From positions 1 to 10,414 of the forward strand of contig JBDZWC010000104.1 in the NCBI GenBank assembly GCA_040256005.1: DNA of 10,414 nucleotides, in the 5' to 3' direction. Below are positions 536-9,836 of the stretch, in pieces. Source of the DNA: Deinococcaceae bacterium (GTDB taxonomy: Bacteria > Deinococcota > Deinococci > Deinococcales > Trueperaceae). Positions within the stretch are counted from its first letter, which is position 1, and each line of letters starts with the position of its first letter. The translations under genes were made by a program, and so were the position numbers. The notes under the pieces are model-generated. The model ran no database searches. It was not told the DNA's origin and worked only from the letters and a program-made list of their open reading frames with translations.

Positions 536-2344
536 CTAACCCTCCAAGGTGAGATGTGCCAGCTCGGCGGCTCCCTCGAGGGTCAGGGAGCGGCCGGCGT
601 CAGACAGTCGGGCGACCACCGCGGCGGGCAGCGAGGCCGCGACCTGGCGCACCGTCTCCACCGGCTTCAGCCACGCCGGCGGCAGGGGAGTACCGAAGCG
701 CTCCCGCCACGCCTCCGCCGCGGCAGCGAGCGTCACGGCCTCCTCGACCCTCGACGAGAGCGCCGCCAGGCCCGCGTAGAGCTCGACGGTCGTGACCAGG
801 CCGAAGCGATCGCCATGCTCCATGCGCGCCACGCGGCAGGCCGCTACGTGGCGCAGCGCTTCTTTCACGTCACCGGCCTCGAACGCGATGAGCGCCAGTG
901 CGGCCAAGCAGTTCGCGACCATCGTCGTGTCGCCGGCGGCGCGTACGACGTCGGTCGCTGCTCGCAGGGCTCGCATGCCGCCCTCCCTGTCGCCGGTGAG
1001 GTACGTCGCCCATGCGAGGTTGTAGCGGGCCAGCCCGTCGAGCTGGGCGTCTTCCAGCGTCCCGAGCTCCGCCAGCGCCGCTCGCAGGTAGGGCAGGGCG
1101 CCGGAGGCGTTGCCGCGCTCGATCTCCACCGCCCCGAGGTTGTTGAGCGCGCTGGCCAGCAGGTCGCGGTCGTCACCGGTGCGCAACGCGTCGATCGCCT
1201 CGGCGAGCTGGAGCGCCGCAGCGTCCCAGGCGCCGCGGCGCATCGCTAGGGAGGCCAGGCTCGTCTTCACCCGCGCGGCCAGCTCGGGATGGCCCGAGGC
1301 GGTCGCTAGCCACAGGGCATCGCGCAGCGCCTCCTCGGCACCGTCCAGGTCCGGGACGAACAGACGGAGGTTGCCGAGGGCGTTGAGCGCCCTGGCGCGC
1401 GTTTCGAGGGTCGTGTGACCTTCCCCGGCGCGGGCCAGCAGCCTCTCCAGGTGAGCGGCGCCCTCGTGAAGCCTGCCCGTAGCGACCCAGCTGCGCGTCA
1501 GCCGACCAGCCAGGCGCAGCCCCGGCTCGACCGAACTCCGCCTCTCGGCCCAAACAAGCGCCGCGGCCGCGTTGTCTAGCTCCTGGTCCAGGCGCGCCAT
1601 GCGTCGCCCAGCGGCGACTTCCTCGGCGAGCCGGGTCATGTACGTAAGCAGGCGCTCCGACACCTCGTCGGCGCCGCCGGGCATTACCGCGAGGCGCTCG
1701 GCCGCCAGGCGCCTGACCATCGGGTGCAGTAGGTACCGGTCACCCCGGCGGACGACGAGCGAGCGGTCGACGAGGTCGGCGAGGGTCGCTACGTGCGCAC
1801 CGGCCACCGCGGCGGCCAGGGCGGCGGTGAAGTTGTCGGCGCAGGCCGAGAGCCGCGCCAGCGCCTGCTGGGCGTGCTCGCCGAGCAGGTCCCAGGTGTA
1901 CCCGAAGGCGGCAGCCACGCTGCTGTGGCGCGCCGTGACACCCGCCCGGGGCGCCAAGCCGGGGTCGGGCGCTGACTCGAGCATCCCGAGTACGTCTTCT
2001 ATAGGTGCGGCGGCGGCCCAGGCCGCGGCTAACTCGACGCCCAACGGCGAATGGTCGACGGCGTAGCAGGCGCGCCGGACCGTCTCTAGCTCGCCTGCGC
2101 CCGGGTCGAAGGCCGGGTCCAGTCGGCGCGCCCTGGCTACGAACATCGCGACAGAGGCCTCGGCGATGCCCGCCAGCCTGACGAGCCGCTCCCCTGCCAC
2201 GCCGAGTCGGCCGTGGGACGTGGCGAGGACCGACAGGCCGGGTGCGGCGGACAGAAGCTCCTCCACGGTCCTCGCGAGCCCCGCGAGGTGCTCGGCGTTG
2301 TCCAGGACCAGAAGGCGCAGGCCGTCGAGCTGCGGCCCCAGCAC
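536..2344 (-). pseudogene. N-terminally truncated STAND (NB-ARC/AfsR-like, COG3903-type) ATPase with winged helix and TPR repeats
   Basis: Contains Walker B LLVLDNAEHL, sensor-like VLATSH, FVARARR, PLGVELAAA, RHSSVAAAFGYTWDLL, LADLVDRSLV and RYLLHPMVR, then TPR helices (ARALNALGNL, ASALNNLGAV, ARYNLAW). The ORF begins only ~10 codons before Walker B. The frame closes upstream at a TGA (plus-strand 2423-2425), and no Walker A or N-terminal DNA-binding domain is present. The 602-codon frame itself is uninterrupted. Confidence 0.75.
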
Positions 2345-2367
2345 CCTCGGCTCGCGATGGAGGGATC

Positions 2368-4116
2368 GTGTTCCGCCTCGAGGGCGGCCGGCCAGTGGTC
2401 GTGAACCCGAGCGTCGATCAGGTCATCGACGAGCCCGAGAACCTCACGGTCGCTTCCGCCGCGGCCGCCCAGCGGCTCACGGGGCTCCCTGAGTCCAACG
2501 GCGGGAGCCCACTGCCGAACCGTGTCGTCGGCGGCGACGGCCCCAAGAGCGCGCTGGTCCTCTCACCCTTCGCCTACGAATCGGGAGAGAACGACAGCGC
2601 CGGCTACGTCGCCGGCCTCCTGAACGCGCACCGCGACTACGAGGGACGCGTCGACTACGAGTACTCGAAGCCGAACTCCAACGAGATCGTCACCATCGAC
2701 GACCTACTGGGCATGGACGAGTACGACGTCGTCTACCTGGTGACGCACGGCGGTCGGTTGTGCGTGAAGGAGAAGACCGCTGAAACGACCGGGCTGGTTA
2801 CGCCCGCCACCCAGGCGGGCGAGGCAGGAGACTGCCGGACCGACTTCCTGCTGCACCGCTACGACGGCGACGCCTTCGACCTGCATGCCCTCGAGCACGT
2901 CGGCACCGTCATCTACTACGGCCGCACGCAGCAGTCGATCGCCGTCACGAGCGACTTCTTCAGGCACTACTACCCCTTCGGGCTCCCCGACACGCTCTTC
3001 GTGCTCGTCTCCTGCAACACGTTCGCACCCGACTTCGCCGCGACGATCGCCGGAGACCACGGCGTCTTCGTGAGCTGGGACGGCAACGTCAGCGTCCAGC
3101 GGGCGTGGGCTTCCGCCGCGTTGATCGAGATCATGCTCGAGAAGGGCATCACCAGCCAGGACGCGCTCCTGGAGCTGGGTGACGACGCCTGGGACTCGCA
3201 CGCCGGCGGCCGCCTACGCACCTCAGGCCATGGCGAGGCCGGCGACCTGCGGATCAGGAACATCCTGCGGGTCGAGGAGGCGCACAGCGGCGACGACCTC
3301 AGGCACGCGGTGGAGACGCAGGTGCTGGGCACCCCTGGCGACGGCGAGCCTGACTCGCTGCTGCTGATCGGCCACATCGACGGCGCCTGGGAGACCGACG
3401 CCGTGCGGTTCAAGGTCATCGCCAACGTGAACGGCCAGGAGCGGTTCACCGAGCGCCTCGAGCAGATCGGCGAGATGGACGATGAGCACAGCTGGACGTT
3501 CCCGATGGAGGTCGAGCTCGGCCGAGACGTGCTTCAGGGCGAGGTGCTCGACGTCGAGGTCGTGGTCATGTTGCCCGAGGGCGGCTTCGTGAGCGTCGTC
3601 GGCTCGCCGCGGGTCGTCGAGCAGGGCCCCGGTGCCGGCTGGTTCGGCAGCTTCGCGTACCGAGCCATGAGCACCGACGGCATCTCCTACCAGATGACGG
3701 CCTCGGCCCTCTTCACGCTGCCTGACGGGGACGACCCTGACTCGAACTACCTCCAGTTCTTCCTCGAGAGCGGCGAGTACACCTTCCTCGCCGAGGGCGA
3801 TGACGGCTTCTCCTGCGCGGTCTACGCCGAGGCGAACGGCTCGCTCGGTCCGTCCTCCGCCTACCTGTGGTTCGACATGACCGGGACTACGCCGGTGGTG
3901 AAGGCCTGGGGCAACAGCGGCACGCCGCCCACCATCGCGAGCGTCAGCTGCCCTGACGGCACCTTCTACCAGCTCGAGTTCTCGACCGACATGCTCTTCC
4001 TTTACATCCCGTCGTCGCTGAACCTAGCCGTATCCGACGACTCGTTCGGCGGTAGTTACACCGAGACCGGCGCCTGGGACCGGACGTGGACATGGTCCTT
4101 CGATAGGCGCGACTGA
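2368..4116 (+). CDS. Uncharacterised acidic protein with a caspase/gingipain-like (clan CD) His-Cys domain and beta-rich C-terminal domains; probably 5'-truncated
   Basis: Strong GC3 codon bias from about 2356 to the TGA at 4114-4116. Motifs KSALVLSPF, YDVVYLVTHGG (His 2746-2748), TLFVLVSCNT (Cys 3013-3015) and VFVSWDGNV. The start is uncertain: GTG 2368 follows GGAGG (2359-2363), while the track start at 2242 lies inside the opposite-strand gene. Confidence 0.7.
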   Translation: MFRLEGGRPVVVNPSVDQVIDEPENLTVASAAAAQRLTGLPESNGGSPLPNRVVGGDGPKSALVLSPFAYESGENDSAGYVAGLLNAHRDYEGRVDYEYSKPNSNEIVTIDDLLGMDEYDVVYLVTHGGRLCVKEKTAETTGLVTPATQAGEAGDCRTDFLLHRYDGDAFDLHALEHVGTVIYYGRTQQSIAVTSDFFRHYYPFGLPDTLFVLVSCNTFAPDFAATIAGDHGVFVSWDGNVSVQRAWASAALIEIMLEKGITSQDALLELGDDAWDSHAGGRLRTSGHGEAGDLRIRNILRVEEAHSGDDLRHAVETQVLGTPGDGEPDSLLLIGHIDGAWETDAVRFKVIANVNGQERFTERLEQIGEMDDEHSWTFPMEVELGRDVLQGEVLDVEVVVMLPEGGFVSVVGSPRVVEQGPGAGWFGSFAYRAMSTDGISYQMTASALFTLPDGDDPDSNYLQFFLESGEYTFLAEGDDGFSCAVYAEANGSLGPSSAYLWFDMTGTTPVVKAWGNSGTPPTIASVSCPDGTFYQLEFSTDMLFLYIPSSLNLAVSDDSFGGSYTETGAWDRTWTWSFDRRD

Positions 4117-4217: not shown

Positions 4218-5090
4218 TCAGATCAAGAAGGTCGCGGCCTCACCGCGTGCGTGGAGCACGCCTTCCCGCACGGCCAGGGCCTGCTCGACGATCGCCGGCA
4301 CCCCGGTGTAGATGATCAGCGGTCCGGACCGGGTCAGGTCGGGACCGTTCAGCTCGAGGTGCACCTTCCCGCCCGCCTCCGATACCAGCACGCTGCCGGC
4401 GGCGACGTCCCACGGGCGGATGCCGTGTTGGAAGAAGACGTCCACGCGCCCTGAGGCGACCAGCGTCAGGTCGCGGCAGGCCGACCCGCTCACGCGGCAC
4501 CCGGCCGCGCTGCGCTGCAACGCGGCGAAGACGTTCATCGTTACCGGGTCCTTGCCGGCGCTGGTCGTGAAGCCGGTCGTGAGCAGCGACAGCGCGATGT
4601 CCTCGCGCGAGGAGACGCGCAGTCGCTGAGCCTCGCCCTGTCCCGTTGACGGGTCGCGCCAGGCGCCACCGCCCGCCACGGCCCAGTTCACCGCGTCCGT
4701 GACCGAGTCGTAGATGACGCCGAGCACGCTCCTGCCTTCGACCACCAGCCCGATGGAGACGCAGAAGCCCGGGTAGTTGCGCAGGAAGTTGTGCGTCCCG
4801 TCGATGGGGTCTATGACCCACACGGGCTCGCTGGTGTCCACGTCGGCCAGGCCCGACTCCTCGCCCAGCAGCCCGTAGCCCGGGAAGTTGCGGCTCAGGT
4901 CCTCGACGATGCGCTCCTGCACCGCCAGGTCCACCGAGGTGACGAAGTCGCTCGGGCTCGACTTGCTGCCGATCTCCAAGCCCGGATCGCCCCTGAAGTT
5001 GGCGTCCGACTGCTCGCGTGCCCATCTCCCCAGGCGGGCAGCCAGCGGCGCCACGTGGTCTTTGATCTGTCTCAGCTCTTCGGTTCTCAT
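4218..5090 (-). CDS. suhB: Inositol monophosphatase family protein (SuhB-like)
   Basis: Motifs KSSPSDFVTSVD, LLGEE, WVIDPIDGTHNF, RVSGSAC and PWDVAAG. Start placed at ATG 5090 (MRTEELRQ, 290 aa) because the 38 upstream codons are Arg-rich and non-homologous and a -10 box lies 7 nt upstream. Confidence 0.9.
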   Translation of the reverse strand: MRTEELRQIKDHVAPLAARLGRWAREQSDANFRGDPGLEIGSKSSPSDFVTSVDLAVQERIVEDLSRNFPGYGLLGEESGLADVDTSEPVWVIDPIDGTHNFLRNYPGFCVSIGLVVEGRSVLGVIYDSVTDAVNWAVAGGGAWRDPSTGQGEAQRLRVSSREDIALSLLTTGFTTSAGKDPVTMNVFAALQRSAAGCRVSGSACRDLTLVASGRVDVFFQHGIRPWDVAAGSVLVSEAGGKVHLELNGPDLTRSGPLIIYTGVPAIVEQALAVREGVLHARGEAATFLI

Positions 5091-5097
5091 CGGGGTG

Positions 5098-5103
5098 ACT
5101 CTA
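5098..5103 (-). promoter_or_regulatory. -10 element (TAGAGT) of a leaderless promoter for suhB
   Basis: Minus strand reads GG-TAGAGT-CACCCCG-ATG: a TANNNT hexamer 7 nt before the ATG, with no Shine-Dalgarno. Confidence 0.6.
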
Positions 5104-5214
5104 CCGCTGCAGGTGCGCCACTCCCGATGACGCGGAGACCCCTTTGGCCGCCGCGCCCTGCTCGTTGCACGTGCGATCGCCCATGGAGCGCGACGACCCT
5201 TCACGGGTCCGGCC

Positions 5215-6018
5215 TCAGAACGCCTCGAAGAACCCCGTGACCCGGTCTACTTGGACCGGCGCCTTGGCGAAGCGCGTCGCCAGTCCGTGGCGCCAGGCCT
5301 CGAAGCCGCGCGCCGCCTGTTCGCTGGTCAGGATCGCTTCCTCGATGGGCGAGTCCACCATCGAGAGGATGTAGCGGACGTACGGCTCCAGGTCGTTGAC
5401 GACCAGCCGGTCGCGTCGATCGAAGACCCTCACGTCATCGAAGTAGCCCCTCAGGAGCCTCTCGCCGGTGTCGAGGGAGAAGCGGCCGACGTCGTAACTG
5501 CGGACCTCGAGACCGGGCACCGCCCGCGACAACGGTTCCAGGTCGTCGTGAAGCTGCTTCATGTGGTTCTTGCCGTTGGTCGCGGCGTACAGCCGGCCGC
5601 CCGGCTTGATGACGCGTCGTAGCTCCGCGATGGCGGCGTCCACGTCCTCAGCGTGGTAGAGCATGTGGTTCGCGAAGGCCACGTCGAAGGACGCGTCGGC
5701 GAACGGCAGGTCGGCCACCGAGTGGATCCCGAAGCCTGCCTTGACTCCTGCTGCCTCTAGGTTCGCGCGAGCCTCGCTCACCATCCCAGCCGACTGGTCG
5801 GTGAGCGTCAACGTCCAGCCCTTCGGGACTTGCCGGGCGTTGACGACCCAGAAGTAGCCGGAGCCGCAGCCGACCTCGAGCACGTTGGCCGTGGGTGGCG
5901 CCTGGACCTGCCGGAGCATCCAGGCGTGGAACGGCTCCTGGGCAGGGCCGTAGCGCTCGTGGAGTGCGATGCGATCTTTGAGCTTGTCAGCAGTCCCGTA
6001 CTGCTTCGCCAGCGTCAT
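5215..6018 (-). CDS. Class I SAM-dependent methyltransferase (Methyltransf_11-like), substrate unknown
   Basis: Motif I VLEVGCGSG, LTLTDQSAGM, DLPFADASFDVAFANHMLYH and ELRRVIKPGGRL; 267 aa. Confidence 0.92.
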   Translation of the reverse strand: MTLAKQYGTADKLKDRIALHERYGPAQEPFHAWMLRQVQAPPTANVLEVGCGSGYFWVVNARQVPKGWTLTLTDQSAGMVSEARANLEAAGVKAGFGIHSVADLPFADASFDVAFANHMLYHAEDVDAAIAELRRVIKPGGRLYAATNGKNHMKQLHDDLEPLSRAVPGLEVRSYDVGRFSLDTGERLLRGYFDDVRVFDRRDRLVVNDLEPYVRYILSMVDSPIEEAILTSEQAARGFEAWRHGLATRFAKAPVQVDRVTGFFEAF

Positions 6019-6027
6019 GACCAGCAG

Positions 6028-6033
6028 ACTCTA
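6028..6033 (-). promoter_or_regulatory. -10 element (TAGAGT) of a leaderless or near-leaderless promoter for the methyltransferase
   Basis: Minus strand reads GG-TAGAGT-CTGCTGGTC-ATG (9-nt spacer). It shares the GGTAGAGTC 9-mer found upstream of suhB, and there is no Shine-Dalgarno. Confidence 0.5.
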
Positions 6034-6089
6034 CCCACGCATCGTGAGGGCGCGTGAGGGGCGTAGCGGTCCGGTCCTCAGGGTGCGTC

Positions 6090-6189
6090 GGTGCTTGCTC
6101 TTATGGTGGGGCGATGCTCGGTCTAGGCGTGCGACGGTGCTCGTTCTCGGGGCGCCAGGGTGCTCGCACTCGGGGAGAGACGGTGCTCG
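6090..6189. repeat. Degenerate tandem repeat, 23-bp period, core GGTGCTCG
   Basis: Cores at 6090 (GGTGCTTG), 6113 (GATGCTCG), 6136, 6159 and 6182 (GGTGCTCG), exactly 23 bp apart. A more degenerate unit lies at about 6068-6089. Confidence 0.8.
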
Positions 6190-6317
6190 CCTCCCCTTGA
6201 CCTGACCGGCGGGGGCATGCTCTACTCCGCTCCATCGCTCGCGCCGCCGGGTTCTCGCCCGAGTGCGTTGGCGATCCGGGGAAGACCCTGGTGCCACCGG
6301 CCGGGCATGCGGCCGGA

Positions 6318-6437
6318 CTTATCGAGAGCGGCTGAGGGAACTGGCCCTAGGAAGCCGCAGCAACCAGCCTTCATCTAGGCGGGTGCTAACTCCAGCCGGA
6401 GGCGACAGCCACGATGGTGAGCCGCCGGACAGATAAG
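6318..6437 (+). ncRNA. SAM-I (S-box) riboswitch aptamer
   Basis: P1 CTTATC/GATAAG; P2 CGGC-TGAGGG-AACTGG-CCC-TAGGAA-GCCG; P3 GCAACC...GGTGC; J3/4 TAACTCCAG (CCAG can pseudoknot with L2 CTGG); P4 CCGG...CCGG. It lies upstream of methionine biosynthesis genes. Confidence 0.95.
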
Positions 6438-6445
6438 GAGCAGGC

Positions 6446-6493
6446 ATGTCAGGTAGCGGCCTAACCGACCAACGAATGTCACGCGCGGCCTGA
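6446..6493 (+). CDS. Putative 15-aa leader peptide/uORF (MSGSGLTDQRMSRAA)
   Basis: AAGGAG at 6435-6440, 5-nt spacer, ATG at 6446 and TGA at 6491-6493. The SD overlaps the 3' strand of riboswitch P1. Translation is not demonstrated. Confidence 0.5.
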   Translation: MSGSGLTDQRMSRAA

Positions 6494-6686
6494 GCCGACC
6501 GCCCGCCAGCCGCGGGCGTGACCCTCAGGGCCGCAGGTAGTCGCCCCGGCGCGAGCTGGCGCCAGGGCGGGGTGGCGCGCTATCGCGCCTACCCGGCACA
6601 CGCATCCGCATACCCGAGACACCGTCGGCAGCACCGCTGCCTTGAGCAGGCCGCCCACGAACCGGCCGCACGACAGGAGAACCCGC

Positions 6687-8021
6687 ATGTCCTACCGCTT
6701 CGAGACGCTCCAGGTACACGCCGGACAGAGCTTCGACCCCGCGACCAAGTCGCGCGCCGTGCCCATCTACCAGACGACCGCCTTCGGCTTCGACGACGCC
6801 GATCATGCCGCGCGCCTCTTCGCGCTGCAGGAGTTCGGCAACATCTACAGCCGCATCATGAACCCGACGAACGACGTGCTCGAGAAGCGCATCGCCGCGC
6901 TCGAGGGCGGCACGGCAGCGCTGGCGGTAGCCTCCGGGCACGCCGCCGAGTTCCTGACGTTCACGACGCTGGCCGAGGCGGGCGACAACATCGTGGCCTC
7001 GCCGAACCTCTACGGCGGCAGCCGCAACATGCTGTCCGTTACCCTCAAGCGTCTGGGCATCGAGGCCCGGTTCGTTGGCGCCGAGGACGACCCGGCCGAC
7101 TACGCCAGGCTCATCGACGACCGCACCAAGGCTGTCTTCGTCGAGACCATCCCGAACCCCTCCCTCCTGCTGTGCGACCTGCGGGCGATAAGCGACGTGG
7201 CACACGAGCGCGGCGTGGCGGTGGTGGTGGACAACACCACCGCGATGGGCGGCTACCTGTACCGCCCCGTGGACCACGGTGCAGACATCGTCGTGCATTC
7301 CGCGACCAAGTGGATCAACGGGCACGGCACCGGAGTAGGTGGTCTCATCGTCGACCTAGGGACCTTCGACTGGGGCAACGGTCGCTACCCCGGCTTCTCT
7401 GAGCCCAGCCCGAGCTATCACGGCCTCGTCTTCTCCGACGTGTTCGGCAAGGACGGCCCCTTCGGCAACATCGCCTTCGCGATCCGTGCCCGGGTCGAGG
7501 GCCTGCGCGACCAAGGCGCAGCGCTGGCGCCTCAGAACGCCTTCCTGTTCCTGCAGGGGCTCGAGACCCTCAGCCTGAGGGCCGAGCGCCACATCTTCAA
7601 CACGAGGCGGCTCGTCGAGTGGTTCGGCCAGCAGGAGGGTGTGACCCGCGTCGTCTATCCCGAGCTGGAGTCGCACCCCAGCAACCAGCGCGCCAAGTCC
7701 GACTTCCCGCGCGGCGCCGGCGCCGTGTTCAACTTCGAGCTCGAGGGTGGCATACCAGCGGGCAAGGCGTTCCTCGACGCGCTGCAGCTCGCCTCACGCC
7801 TAGTGAACCTCGGCGACGCCAAGACGAGCGTCACCCACCCGGCCAGCACCACGCACTCCCAGCTCTCAGACACCGAGCTCCTCAGCGCCGGCGTCACGCC
7901 TGGCCTCATCCGCGTGTCGCCCGGGATCGAGCACGTGGACGACCTGATCGAGGACTTCTCGCGCGCACTGGAGGCCGCGCGGCGAACGTCTCCGGTCGCT
8001 GCTGACCGTGCCGCCGACTGA
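6687..8021 (+). CDS. metY: O-acetylhomoserine aminocarboxypropyltransferase (O-acetylhomoserine sulfhydrylase), PLP-dependent
   Basis: [35 protein letters not shown] lysine in [11 protein letters not shown], and [25 protein letters not shown] at 6675-6679 precedes ATG 6687 (444 aa). Confidence 0.95.
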
Positions 8022-9261
8022 AGTAGCTACGTTGGATCGGGTCGAGCGCCGGGGCGCCGCGTCAGCGGACTCCCCGGCGCGCACCCTCGTCCATGAGACG
8101 TGGGGTGATCACGCCGCCCTCCTGGCACGCACGCGAGGTCCAGGTGGCGGCTCGGTGGGCCGGGTTCATCCCAAGGTCCTCGACGTCGTCACCCCAGAGG
8201 ACCCCTTGCGCCTGCAACACGGCGGCATCCTGCCGAGCGTCGCGGTCGCCTACGAGGAGTACGGGGAGCGCAACGCCGCCGGCGACAACACGGTGCTCGT
8301 CTGCCACGCCCTCACGGGCTCGGCGCACGCGGCCGGGGTAGGGGACAGGGAAGAGGTCCCTGGCTGGTGGGACCCGCTCATCGGGCCCGGCAAGGCGATC
8401 GACACCGACCGTTTCCACGTGCTTTGCACCAACGTCCTGGGCGGCTGCTACGGCACGACCGGCCCGTCATCGCTGGATCCCTCGACGGGCCGTCCCTACG
8501 GCCCCACGTTCCCGCGCTACACGGTGCGCGACATGGTGGAGGTCCAGAAGCGCCTGCTCGATCGCCTGGAGATCGGTTCGGTGCGAGCGGTCGTGGGCGG
8601 CTCCATGGGCGGCATGCAGGTTCTCGAGTGGGGCGTCATGTACCCGGAGATGGTGCGCGGCCTGGTCCCCATCGCGATAGGTGCGCGCCATTCCGCTTGG
8701 GCCATAGGGCTCAACGAAGTAGCCAGGCGCGCCATCATGTCAGACCCAGCCTGGCAGGGCGGTACCTACCGGATAGATCAGCAGCCCGAGGTGGGTCTTG
8801 GTCTGGCTCGAGCGATCGCGATGCTGACGTACAGGTCGCACGCGTCGGTCGAGGGAAGGTTCGGTAGAGAACGATTTGATAATAAGCACTCGAACGGCCA
8901 AGCAGCTGGCTCCGTGCTCGAGGCTCCGTTCGAGATCGCCAGCTACCTCGCCTACCAGGGCGTCAAGCTCGTCAAGCGCTTCGACGCCAACACGTACCTG
9001 TACCTGACGTTGGCGATGGACGACTACGACATCGGCGAGGGCCGGGGTGGCGTCGACGCTGTGCTGTCCAAGTTGACGATGCCTGCGCTGGTGCTGGGCA
9101 TCGACACCGACGTTCTGTACCCGGAGGCAGAGGCCAAGGCGCTGGCGGAGAGGTTGCCCAGCGCGCGGTACGCGCGCATCGTCTCACCCCACGGACACGA
9201 CGCGTTCCTGATCGAGTTCGACCAGGTGTCAGCGCATCTGAGGCGGTTCCTGGCGAGCTGA
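8008..9261 (+). CDS. metX: Homoserine O-acetyltransferase (alpha/beta hydrolase fold)
   Basis: [35 protein letters not shown], nucleophile [21 protein letters not shown] and HGHDAFL. The GTG start overlaps the end of metY by 14 nt; the exact start is uncertain. Confidence 0.93.
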
Positions 9262-9278: not shown

Positions 9279-9484
9279 GGCCCGTTCAGCGGCTTCGGGC
9301 GTTAGCGCGTCTAGGGTCGCATGCGGTTTCGGTGGCGACTTCGAGACAGACCACCTGGCACCTCTTTTCGGCGTCGAAGCCACTAACAACCTGGCGCATA
9401 GTCAGAGCGGCGAAGGGAAAGAACGCCGCGTTCCTAGCGGGTCTTTCAGGCAAGTGACGTCTTGCCCTATCAAGTAGGTGCATA

Positions 9485-9679
9485 GTGGCTTTCCCCCGGA
9501 AAAGACATGTGTCCTCCCCGGCCGCGAACGAGACAGCTCCGCCGGAAAAGACATGGGGTGGCCTCCCCCCGGAAAAGACATGTGTCCTCCCAGGCCGCGA
9601 ACGAGACAGCTCCGCCGGAAAGGACATGTGGTGGCTTCCCTCCGGGAAAGGCCTCTCAGGCCACGGACGAGGCAGCGCC
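9485..9679. repeat. 73-bp tandem repeat (two full copies plus a degenerate third) with nested 16-mer CCGGAAAAGACATGTG
   Basis: Units start at 9485, 9558 and 9631; copies 1 and 2 match at 68/73 by hand count. The 16-mer or its variants occur at 9496, 9542, 9569 and 9615, with a partial copy at 9642. Confidence 0.92.
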
Positions 9680-9836
9680 AGGTCGGCGCCAAGCTGCGAC
9701 CAGCCGACCGGCAATATCAGCGGCCGCGCCCATGTAGAGTGTCCGTCGTTCGGCACACTCCACTTACGCGTTAGCCACAGCAGGTCACACCACACAAGCA
9801 AGACAGCGCGGCGACCGCGCACCCACCGGAGGTTCC

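Follow-up and report, generated by a model that had tools for sequence, protein, structure and literature searches.

A SAM-I riboswitch ahead of metY-metX in Trueperaceae most likely acts on a short upstream ORF carrying a conserved CGA-AUG codon pair

The window, that is the whole stretch of DNA analysed here, comprises 10,414 nt of contig JBDZWC010000104.1 (assembly GCA_040256005.1) from a member of the Trueperaceae. It carries two sulfur/methionine genes on the plus strand: metY, encoding O-acetylhomoserine sulfhydrylase (6687..8021; TIGR01326, 615 bits, above the cut-off), the closest relatives of which belong to Trueperaceae, and metX, encoding homoserine O-acetyltransferase (8008..9261 with the longest-ORF start), which scores above the cut-off of PRK00175 (458 bits) and just below that of TIGR01392 (463 bits). 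Upstream of them, on the same strand, a SAM-I riboswitch aptamer is located at 6316..6439. The comparison with the RF00162 covariance model, suggested in a first-pass annotation of this DNA, returned 77.1 bits in cmscan against a gathering threshold of 44.4 (E 3.6e-17) with the model covered over its full length (1-108), and by its score and context, with metY and metX downstream, the element is classified as a true SAM-I riboswitch. Apart from SAM-I no Rfam match was obtained by cmscan in the whole window, and an Rfam search of the whole genome gave no second SAM-I. According to the cmscan alignment and the sequence, helix P1 is formed by CTTATC (6318..6323) and GATAAG (6432..6437) and is counted as 6 bp because the two outer P1 pairs are non-standard; P1 was not reproduced in a minimum free energy fold of the complete leader. 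The P3 loop YCAUNY (6372-6380) and the P4 cap CYA-CGR-URG (6409-6419) are conserved, and both recur in most Trueperaceae aptamers, including those with no upstream ORF. The remainder of the window holds an astacin peptidase fragment at the contig start (63-449, plus strand), a TPR-containing protein (536-2344, minus), a 624-aa ORF with no Pfam match (2242-4116, plus), an inositol-monophosphatase-family gene (4218-5204, minus) and a class I SAM-dependent methyltransferase gene that is oriented divergently to the riboswitch (5215-6018, minus), while overlapping ORF translations with short repeated units after metX, at about 9400-9700, suggest a small repeat array.

The 3' strand of P1 overlaps a Shine-Dalgarno sequence (SD), AAGGAG at 6435..6440, half of which, i.e. 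the first three bases, lies within the helix. After a gap of 5 nt there follows the ATG (6446) of an upstream ORF (uORF) of 15 codons on the plus strand (6446..6493) with the translation MSGSGLTDQRMSRAA, and metY starts 247 nt past the aptamer with an SD of its own (AGGAG, 6675..6679). The first-pass annotation had described the same P1-SD-ATG arrangement, had placed metY about 250 nt after the aptamer with a separate SD and had noted the lack of a hairpin followed by a U-run in the leader; the sequence bears out all of this, and a promoter and terminator scan of 5800-7000 found neither. An intrinsic terminator platform is not seen here, as the window contains 0 sites with a hairpin and a U-tract, nor is direct occlusion of the RBS of the regulated gene, the SD within P1 serving the 15-codon uORF. 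SAM-I elements in which the 3' side of P1 contains the RBS are described as 'direct translation attenuation' (PMC2258182). Judged by the description given there, the aptamer and the overlap of the SD with P1 are alike, whereas here the SD belongs to the uORF and the gene with its own SD comes much further downstream.

To what extent this geometry is conserved was evaluated by comparing the leaders of relatives. The survey covered 128 family genomes, 99 of which had a match, with 128 hits in total; 124 were kept, and G120, G113 and two hits cut by contig ends were left out. The sequence CGAATG occurs between the aptamer and the gene in 88 of the 124 leaders, representing 28 genera. Within Trueperaceae it is present in 74 of the 75 SAM-I leaders preceding metY orthologues (at least 65% identity), in 5/16 leaders before distant metY-like genes and in 9/33 of the remaining ones, six of these nine ending at a contig edge and three preceding a homocysteine S-methyltransferase (a call made with Pfam on G017 only, out of three genomes). 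An SD-led start in frame with CGA-ATG and free of intervening stops was found in 85/88 leaders, the other two frames giving 2/88 and 3/88, even though the spacing from P1 to CGA takes 54 distinct distances and all three residues modulo 3. The geometry of SD, ATG and stop is accordingly conserved, and because the in-frame preference holds across such varied spacings the uORF is, as far as sequence comparison goes, beyond chance; the counts themselves are descriptive, kin not being independent. Neither the peptide nor its length is conserved, the number of codons ahead of CGA varying from 2 to 45. The stop codon falls 3 or 6 codons from CGA in 69/88 leaders, and the stop lies 193 nt before metY in the window and 75-416 nt before it in 78/79 leaders (median 160), G142 being the single leader in which the uORF runs into metY. 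A natural variant, G149 (L332), has CGA-ACG in place of CGA-AUG. In the metY leaders of Deinococcus, Thermales and Balneolaceae examined, no strong-SD CGA-ATG uORF was found upstream of metY. A second copy of the module was sought in the own genome and only one weak candidate (C69), which has no strong hairpin, was obtained; family-wide, a 17-nt pattern outside metY leaders occurred at a frequency near that of its reversed control.

The uORF start lies at most 30 nt from the P1 3' strand in 33 leaders, the present one included, and further on in 52. In these 52 relatives a separate SD, 35-159 nt downstream, opens the same frame, and in 51 of them a small hairpin, GGC...GCCUC, shares bases with the P1 3' strand, the GCCUC part being complementary to the uORF SD, which constitutes a separate anti-SD platform. 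An opening of the SD in the absence of P1 was predicted above 0.05 in only 26/52 distant-start leaders, and for that reason the anti-SD motif is considered stronger evidence than the energy model. That two different platforms converge on the SD of the uORF speaks most strongly for the uORF as target. The targeting of this SD, as put forward in the first-pass annotation, is upheld by the conserved geometry, by the second platform and by an exception, G025 (L049), in which the uORF is absent and the same anti-SD platform is aimed at metY directly. It can be stated with high confidence that the uORF is real and is the target of the riboswitch, which most likely regulates the access of ribosomes to the uORF and not the own SD of metY. 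In some Trueperaceae leaders the P1-SD geometry stands immediately at the start of a gene, and in L023 (G051:C10), inspected by eye, the SD in P1 opens a short ORF that overlaps the start of the next gene, a possible ppe2-like coupling.

One could still assume that the uORF is incidental, a purine-rich P1 3' strand (purine-rich by SAM-I consensus) merely mimicking an SD, and that metY is controlled by long-range refolding. This is very improbable in view of the frame test and of the 52 relatives in which the same frame is opened from a separate SD. Moreover, the predicted accessibility of the metY SD amounts to 0.48 with no ribosome, 0.52 with a stalled ribosome and 0.51 with a ribosome at the stop (n=72), and long-range refolding at this SD was rejected on the grounds that the states do not differ. 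With the accessibility practically unchanged and the uORF stop 75-416 nt from metY, both refolding at the metY SD and reinitiation appear unlikely in these predictions.

The most constant part of the uORF is the in-frame CGA-AUG with the following pyrimidine (6473..6479, plus strand), which is proposed to be a pause site sensing Met-tRNA. AUG is followed by C or T in 88/88 leaders and the base at -1 is a purine in 79/88; CGAAUG is predicted to be single-stranded and adjoins a stable stem. In the 74 metY-orthologue leaders with the pair the Arg codon is always CGA and no other Arg codon is used. As regards the criteria of a leader-peptide attenuator, a conserved in-frame pathway codon is present in the form of a single AUG, but there is neither a run of codons nor enrichment: Trueperaceae uORFs are not Met-rich, with 9 internal ATG in 1336 upstream codons. 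Nor do they resemble arrest peptides, for which a conserved peptide with synonymous variation is expected, the peptides being unrelated apart from Arg-Met, with Arg always as CGA. In this genome CGA is rare, accounting for 5 of 797 Arg codons before ATG in an impure ORF set; a specific avoidance of CGA-ATG in genes was discarded, CGA being equally low before TTC, AAC, ATC and TAC. Pairing of the L3 loop with CGAAUG was likewise rejected by inspection, and uORF-less aptamers (e.g. L153) keep the loop.

CGA is normally decoded by tRNA-Arg(ICG) (PMC3711424). The tRNA-Arg genes found here have the anticodons ACG, CCG, CCT and TCT and none has TCG, in a tRNA set that is incomplete, with Asp, Asn and Phe also missing; if tRNA-Arg(UCG) is truly absent, CGA must be wobble-read. 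A TadA-like gene scores 139 bits, below the cut-off. Modifications of the anticodon loop alter I:A decoding. The invariance of CGA and the fixed pyrimidine could be signals at the RNA level. It can also be envisaged that the pause reads some other signal, namely a SAM- or sulfur-dependent modification of tRNA-Arg(ICG) that sets the speed of CGA, or a metabolite acting on the ribosome. This possibility draws on the fact that CGA is never exchanged for another Arg codon, on its wobble reading in the case outlined above and on the precedent of mgtL, which is described as sensing Mg via translation of proline codons (PMC12360218), but AUG shows the same invariance and often flanks CGA on both sides in the sister family presented below, and the tRNA list behind the wobble argument has the gaps already named, so that the idea has a low probability.

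A predicted hairpin (6485..6534, plus strand; -31.8 kcal/mol, z -3.2) begins 12 nt downstream of the C of CGA and covers the uORF stop. Across the leaders the pairing probability is about 0.9 at offsets 12-15 as compared with 0.13-0.28 at offsets 0-3, and an unbranched hairpin of -10 kcal/mol or better begins exactly at offset 12 in 73/87, the best of 25 offsets. Set against shuffled sequences the signal is moderate: pairing is above that of dinucleotide shuffles in 78/87 leaders, with z<-2 in 37/87, and the hairpin beats all 20 mononucleotide shuffles in only 21/87. The five basal pairs are 96% paired and four of the five show double changes, a level reached by 0/500 shuffles and compared with 27-63% in slid controls, in an alignment of 43 of 61 shortlisted leaders; their ends had been set by folding, a choice that biases towards such an outcome. 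Stem-loops 11-12 nt from the first P-site nucleotide are reported to hinder binding of the A-site tRNA (PMC7282821), and the offset of 12 matches this spacing because CGA would be in the P site with AUG in the A site. As far as these are described there, the dnaX and HIV frameshift stem-loops have a like spacing, whereas here there is no slippery sequence and no second frame, and the hairpin would serve as a pause amplifier. The window hairpin lacks a U-tract and none was found in this genome. With regard to alternative antiterminator and terminator hairpins, one conserved hairpin is seen in Trueperaceae, U-tailed in AT-rich members only: a U-tract (T at least 5 of 9) follows in 9/85 leaders, and the T count past the hairpin is 57 against 31 expected in AT-rich members (13 leaders) and 47 against 42 in GC-rich ones (43 leaders).

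Between the hairpin and the SD of metY there extends an untranslated C-rich spacer (6535..6671, plus strand; C56/G46, and C37/G21 in 6590-6671), a candidate zone for Rho loading and termination. In the 105 nt before metY C exceeds G in 75/78 leaders versus 101/190 control regions of this genome, and a rho gene is present (581 bits), so that the two sequence features expected of a uORF-dependent Rho attenuator, a gene for Rho and an extended untranslated region rich in C, are at hand. Such attenuation is established for tnaC, speFL, mgtL and cruR (PMC12360218). On these sequence features Rho polarity is plausible. Of the two outputs offered in the first-pass annotation it is this one that survives, whereas refolding of the leader found no counterpart in the metY SD predictions. 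A ribosome close to a terminator blocks termination, as at pyrBI. A ribosome-free leader would be terminated, and a parked ribosome would prevent termination. The output is the weakest step of the Trueperaceae model. Since the hairpin would form without a ribosome (OFF) as well as with a stalled one (ON), the decision would have to be made by ribosome occupancy alone.

Taken together, these observations are best accommodated by a two-input switch, to which a probability of roughly 55% is assigned, in which SAM gates the loading of the uORF, a stall at CGA-AUG reads Met-tRNA and termination is the output, the operon being ON when SAM and methionine are both low. At high SAM, P1 would close over the SD, leaving the 250-nt leader ribosome-free and leading to early termination, probably by Rho. 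At low SAM and with plentiful Met-tRNA, the ribosome would pass AUG, melt the hairpin, stop within a few codons and leave, and termination would again follow. When both SAM and Met-tRNA are low, the ribosome would be held up with AUG in its A site and CGA, a rare codon read by wobble, in its P site; the pause would be prolonged by the hairpin at the mRNA entry channel, and the parked ribosome would block Rho, or the U-tailed hairpin terminator of AT-rich relatives, allowing expression of metY-metX. In a Met-sensing model translation of the uORF would therefore be insufficient to turn metY ON and stalling would be required. Against such a switch it must be said that one Met codon is a thin sensor.

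The same module was encountered in a sister family, f5, where 32 of 35 hits were examined (18 long and 14 short aptamers). An in-frame CGA-ATG uORF is inserted in P3 of all 18 long aptamers and of none of the 14 short ones; ATG directly precedes CGA-ATG in 14/18 and two copies occur in 6/18. The long aptamers, of 198-281 nt and with a Met-rich CGA-AUG uORF, are L364, L368, L372-L385, L169 and L171. In folds of the segment between CGA and the end of P3, the helix predicted at offset 12 captured the GGUG strand of the aptamer P3 in 16/18 (in one case counted from the second CGA), and an apparent intrinsic terminator was seen by inspection downstream of these long aptamers. A ribosome waiting at AUG would leave this anti-aptamer helix intact and the aptamer unfolded (ON), and a ribosome running through would melt the helix. 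In this folding model the operon would respond to Met starvation in the expected direction, and the 12-nt geometry recurs with a helix that is unrelated. The P3-inserted uORF aptamers are arguably a finding in their own right. It is conceivable, at slightly less than even odds, that the seven nucleotides of CGA-AUG and the following base, with a hairpin 6 nt on, form a portable ribosomal Met sensor that Deinococcota have joined to SAM-I riboswitches in two ways, as an AND behind the aptamer in Trueperaceae, with SAM gating the entry of ribosomes, and as an OR within P3 in the sister family.

A simpler alternative to the two-input switch treats the uORF as a relay only: any translation of it would cover the hairpin and the C-rich RNA and turn metY ON, the pause at CGA-AUG and the hairpin would be constitutive, keeping the ribosome in place for long enough, and SAM alone would be sensed. 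The position of the stop before or in the 5' arm of the hairpin in most leaders (the 69/88 given above) and the surplus of T behind the hairpin in the 13 AT-rich leaders are in keeping with it, and a relay from riboswitch to uORF is proven for the B12 riboswitch of Mycobacterium tuberculosis ppe2 (PMC11260477). It leaves unexplained, however, why a Met codon is invariant at the A site in a Met operon and why the sister family has AUG-CGA-AUG and repeated CGA-AUG, and stop and start do not overlap as they do in ppe2; it is regarded as unlikely. Improbable to a greater degree is an output through mRNA decay, with CGAAUGY as a frame-dependent site of cleavage or protection and the hairpin as a stabiliser or ribonuclease barrier. 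The invariance at the nucleotide level, including the pyrimidine at +6 and the purine at -1, the predicted single-stranded motif beside a stable stem and the lack of a U-tract in most members would suit decay, but the module of the sister family is predicted to compete with the aptamer upstream of an apparent intrinsic terminator, and the C-rich spacer fits Rho. In the two-input reading, preferred here, the uORF is probably a second sensor and not a plain relay, so that the two-tier design proposed in the first-pass annotation is retained as regards gating of the uORF by the riboswitch and amended as regards the uORF as a simple relay, given CGA-AUG and the hairpin.

The aptamer, the SD overlap, the frame, the codon pair, the hairpin position and the lack of stop-start coupling are read from the sequence comparison, and by these features the element is distinguished from a ppe2-type relay, an arrest peptide and a classical codon-run attenuator; it probably works like a SAM-gated methionine attenuator. 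In ppe2, uPPE2 overlaps PPE2 (AUGA) and acts by termination-reinitiation, as described in PMC11260477. The two systems have in common a riboswitch that masks the SD of a uORF, the translation of which controls the gene behind it, whereas here, in 78/79 leaders and in the window alike, the stop neither overlaps nor abuts the gene start, and the conserved codon pair and hairpin suggest a second sensor. The proposed logic of SAM level plus Met-tRNA charge is shared with tandem SAM-I / T box(Met) riboswitches (PMC9481103) and with SAM-I Xcc, which binds uncharged initiator tRNA (PMC7270179). In the accounts given in these sources both bind tRNA directly, whereas in the present leader the sensing of tRNA would fall to the ribosome, and the two tiers would stand in series, because SAM gates the loading of this sensor. 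With tnaC, speFL, mgtL, cruR and classical leader peptides the element would share a stalled leader-ORF ribosome that decides on premature termination; an aptamer-gated uORF initiation is not among the features for which the first four are discussed in the relevant part of PMC12360218, and in the present leaders a single control codon takes the place of a run, the peptide is not conserved and a conserved 2:3/3:4 hairpin set was not identified. A literature search covering main texts, largely from outside the subscription journals, found no description of the CGA-AUG/hairpin element; one may exist, for example in riboswitch or RegPrecise tables. The riboswitch-gated uORF (ppe2) and the SAM plus Met-tRNA logic (SAM-I/T-box) are already published, and their combination as present here was not found in that search.

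We know of no textbook leader-peptide attenuator for methionine, partly as AUG starts every ORF. If the two-input model is true, a single-codon sensor, a wobble codon and an entry-channel hairpin would be a way to build one, and hairpin-induced A-site blocking, hitherto studied at frameshift sites, would have a natural use. It also follows that a SAM-I riboswitch can have an unannotated uORF as its actual target, so that expression platforms called 'missing' may be misassigned. The occurrence of one module in two architectures makes a direct test of the logic possible, and the module may be viewed as a compact part for two-input synthetic switches. Two further observations may be added. In SAM-I leaders of Thermales (L002-L010, L140, L155-L159) GAACG recurs in the loop of the stem that follows the aptamer. 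A weak SAM-I hit in a genome of the Deinococcus family, L178 (G037, C49:174387-174508), has, when inspected by eye, a P3 uORF ending in Arg-Cys-Cys and, downstream, a second short uORF with CGA-TGT, which is possibly a cysteine version of the CGA-AUG design.
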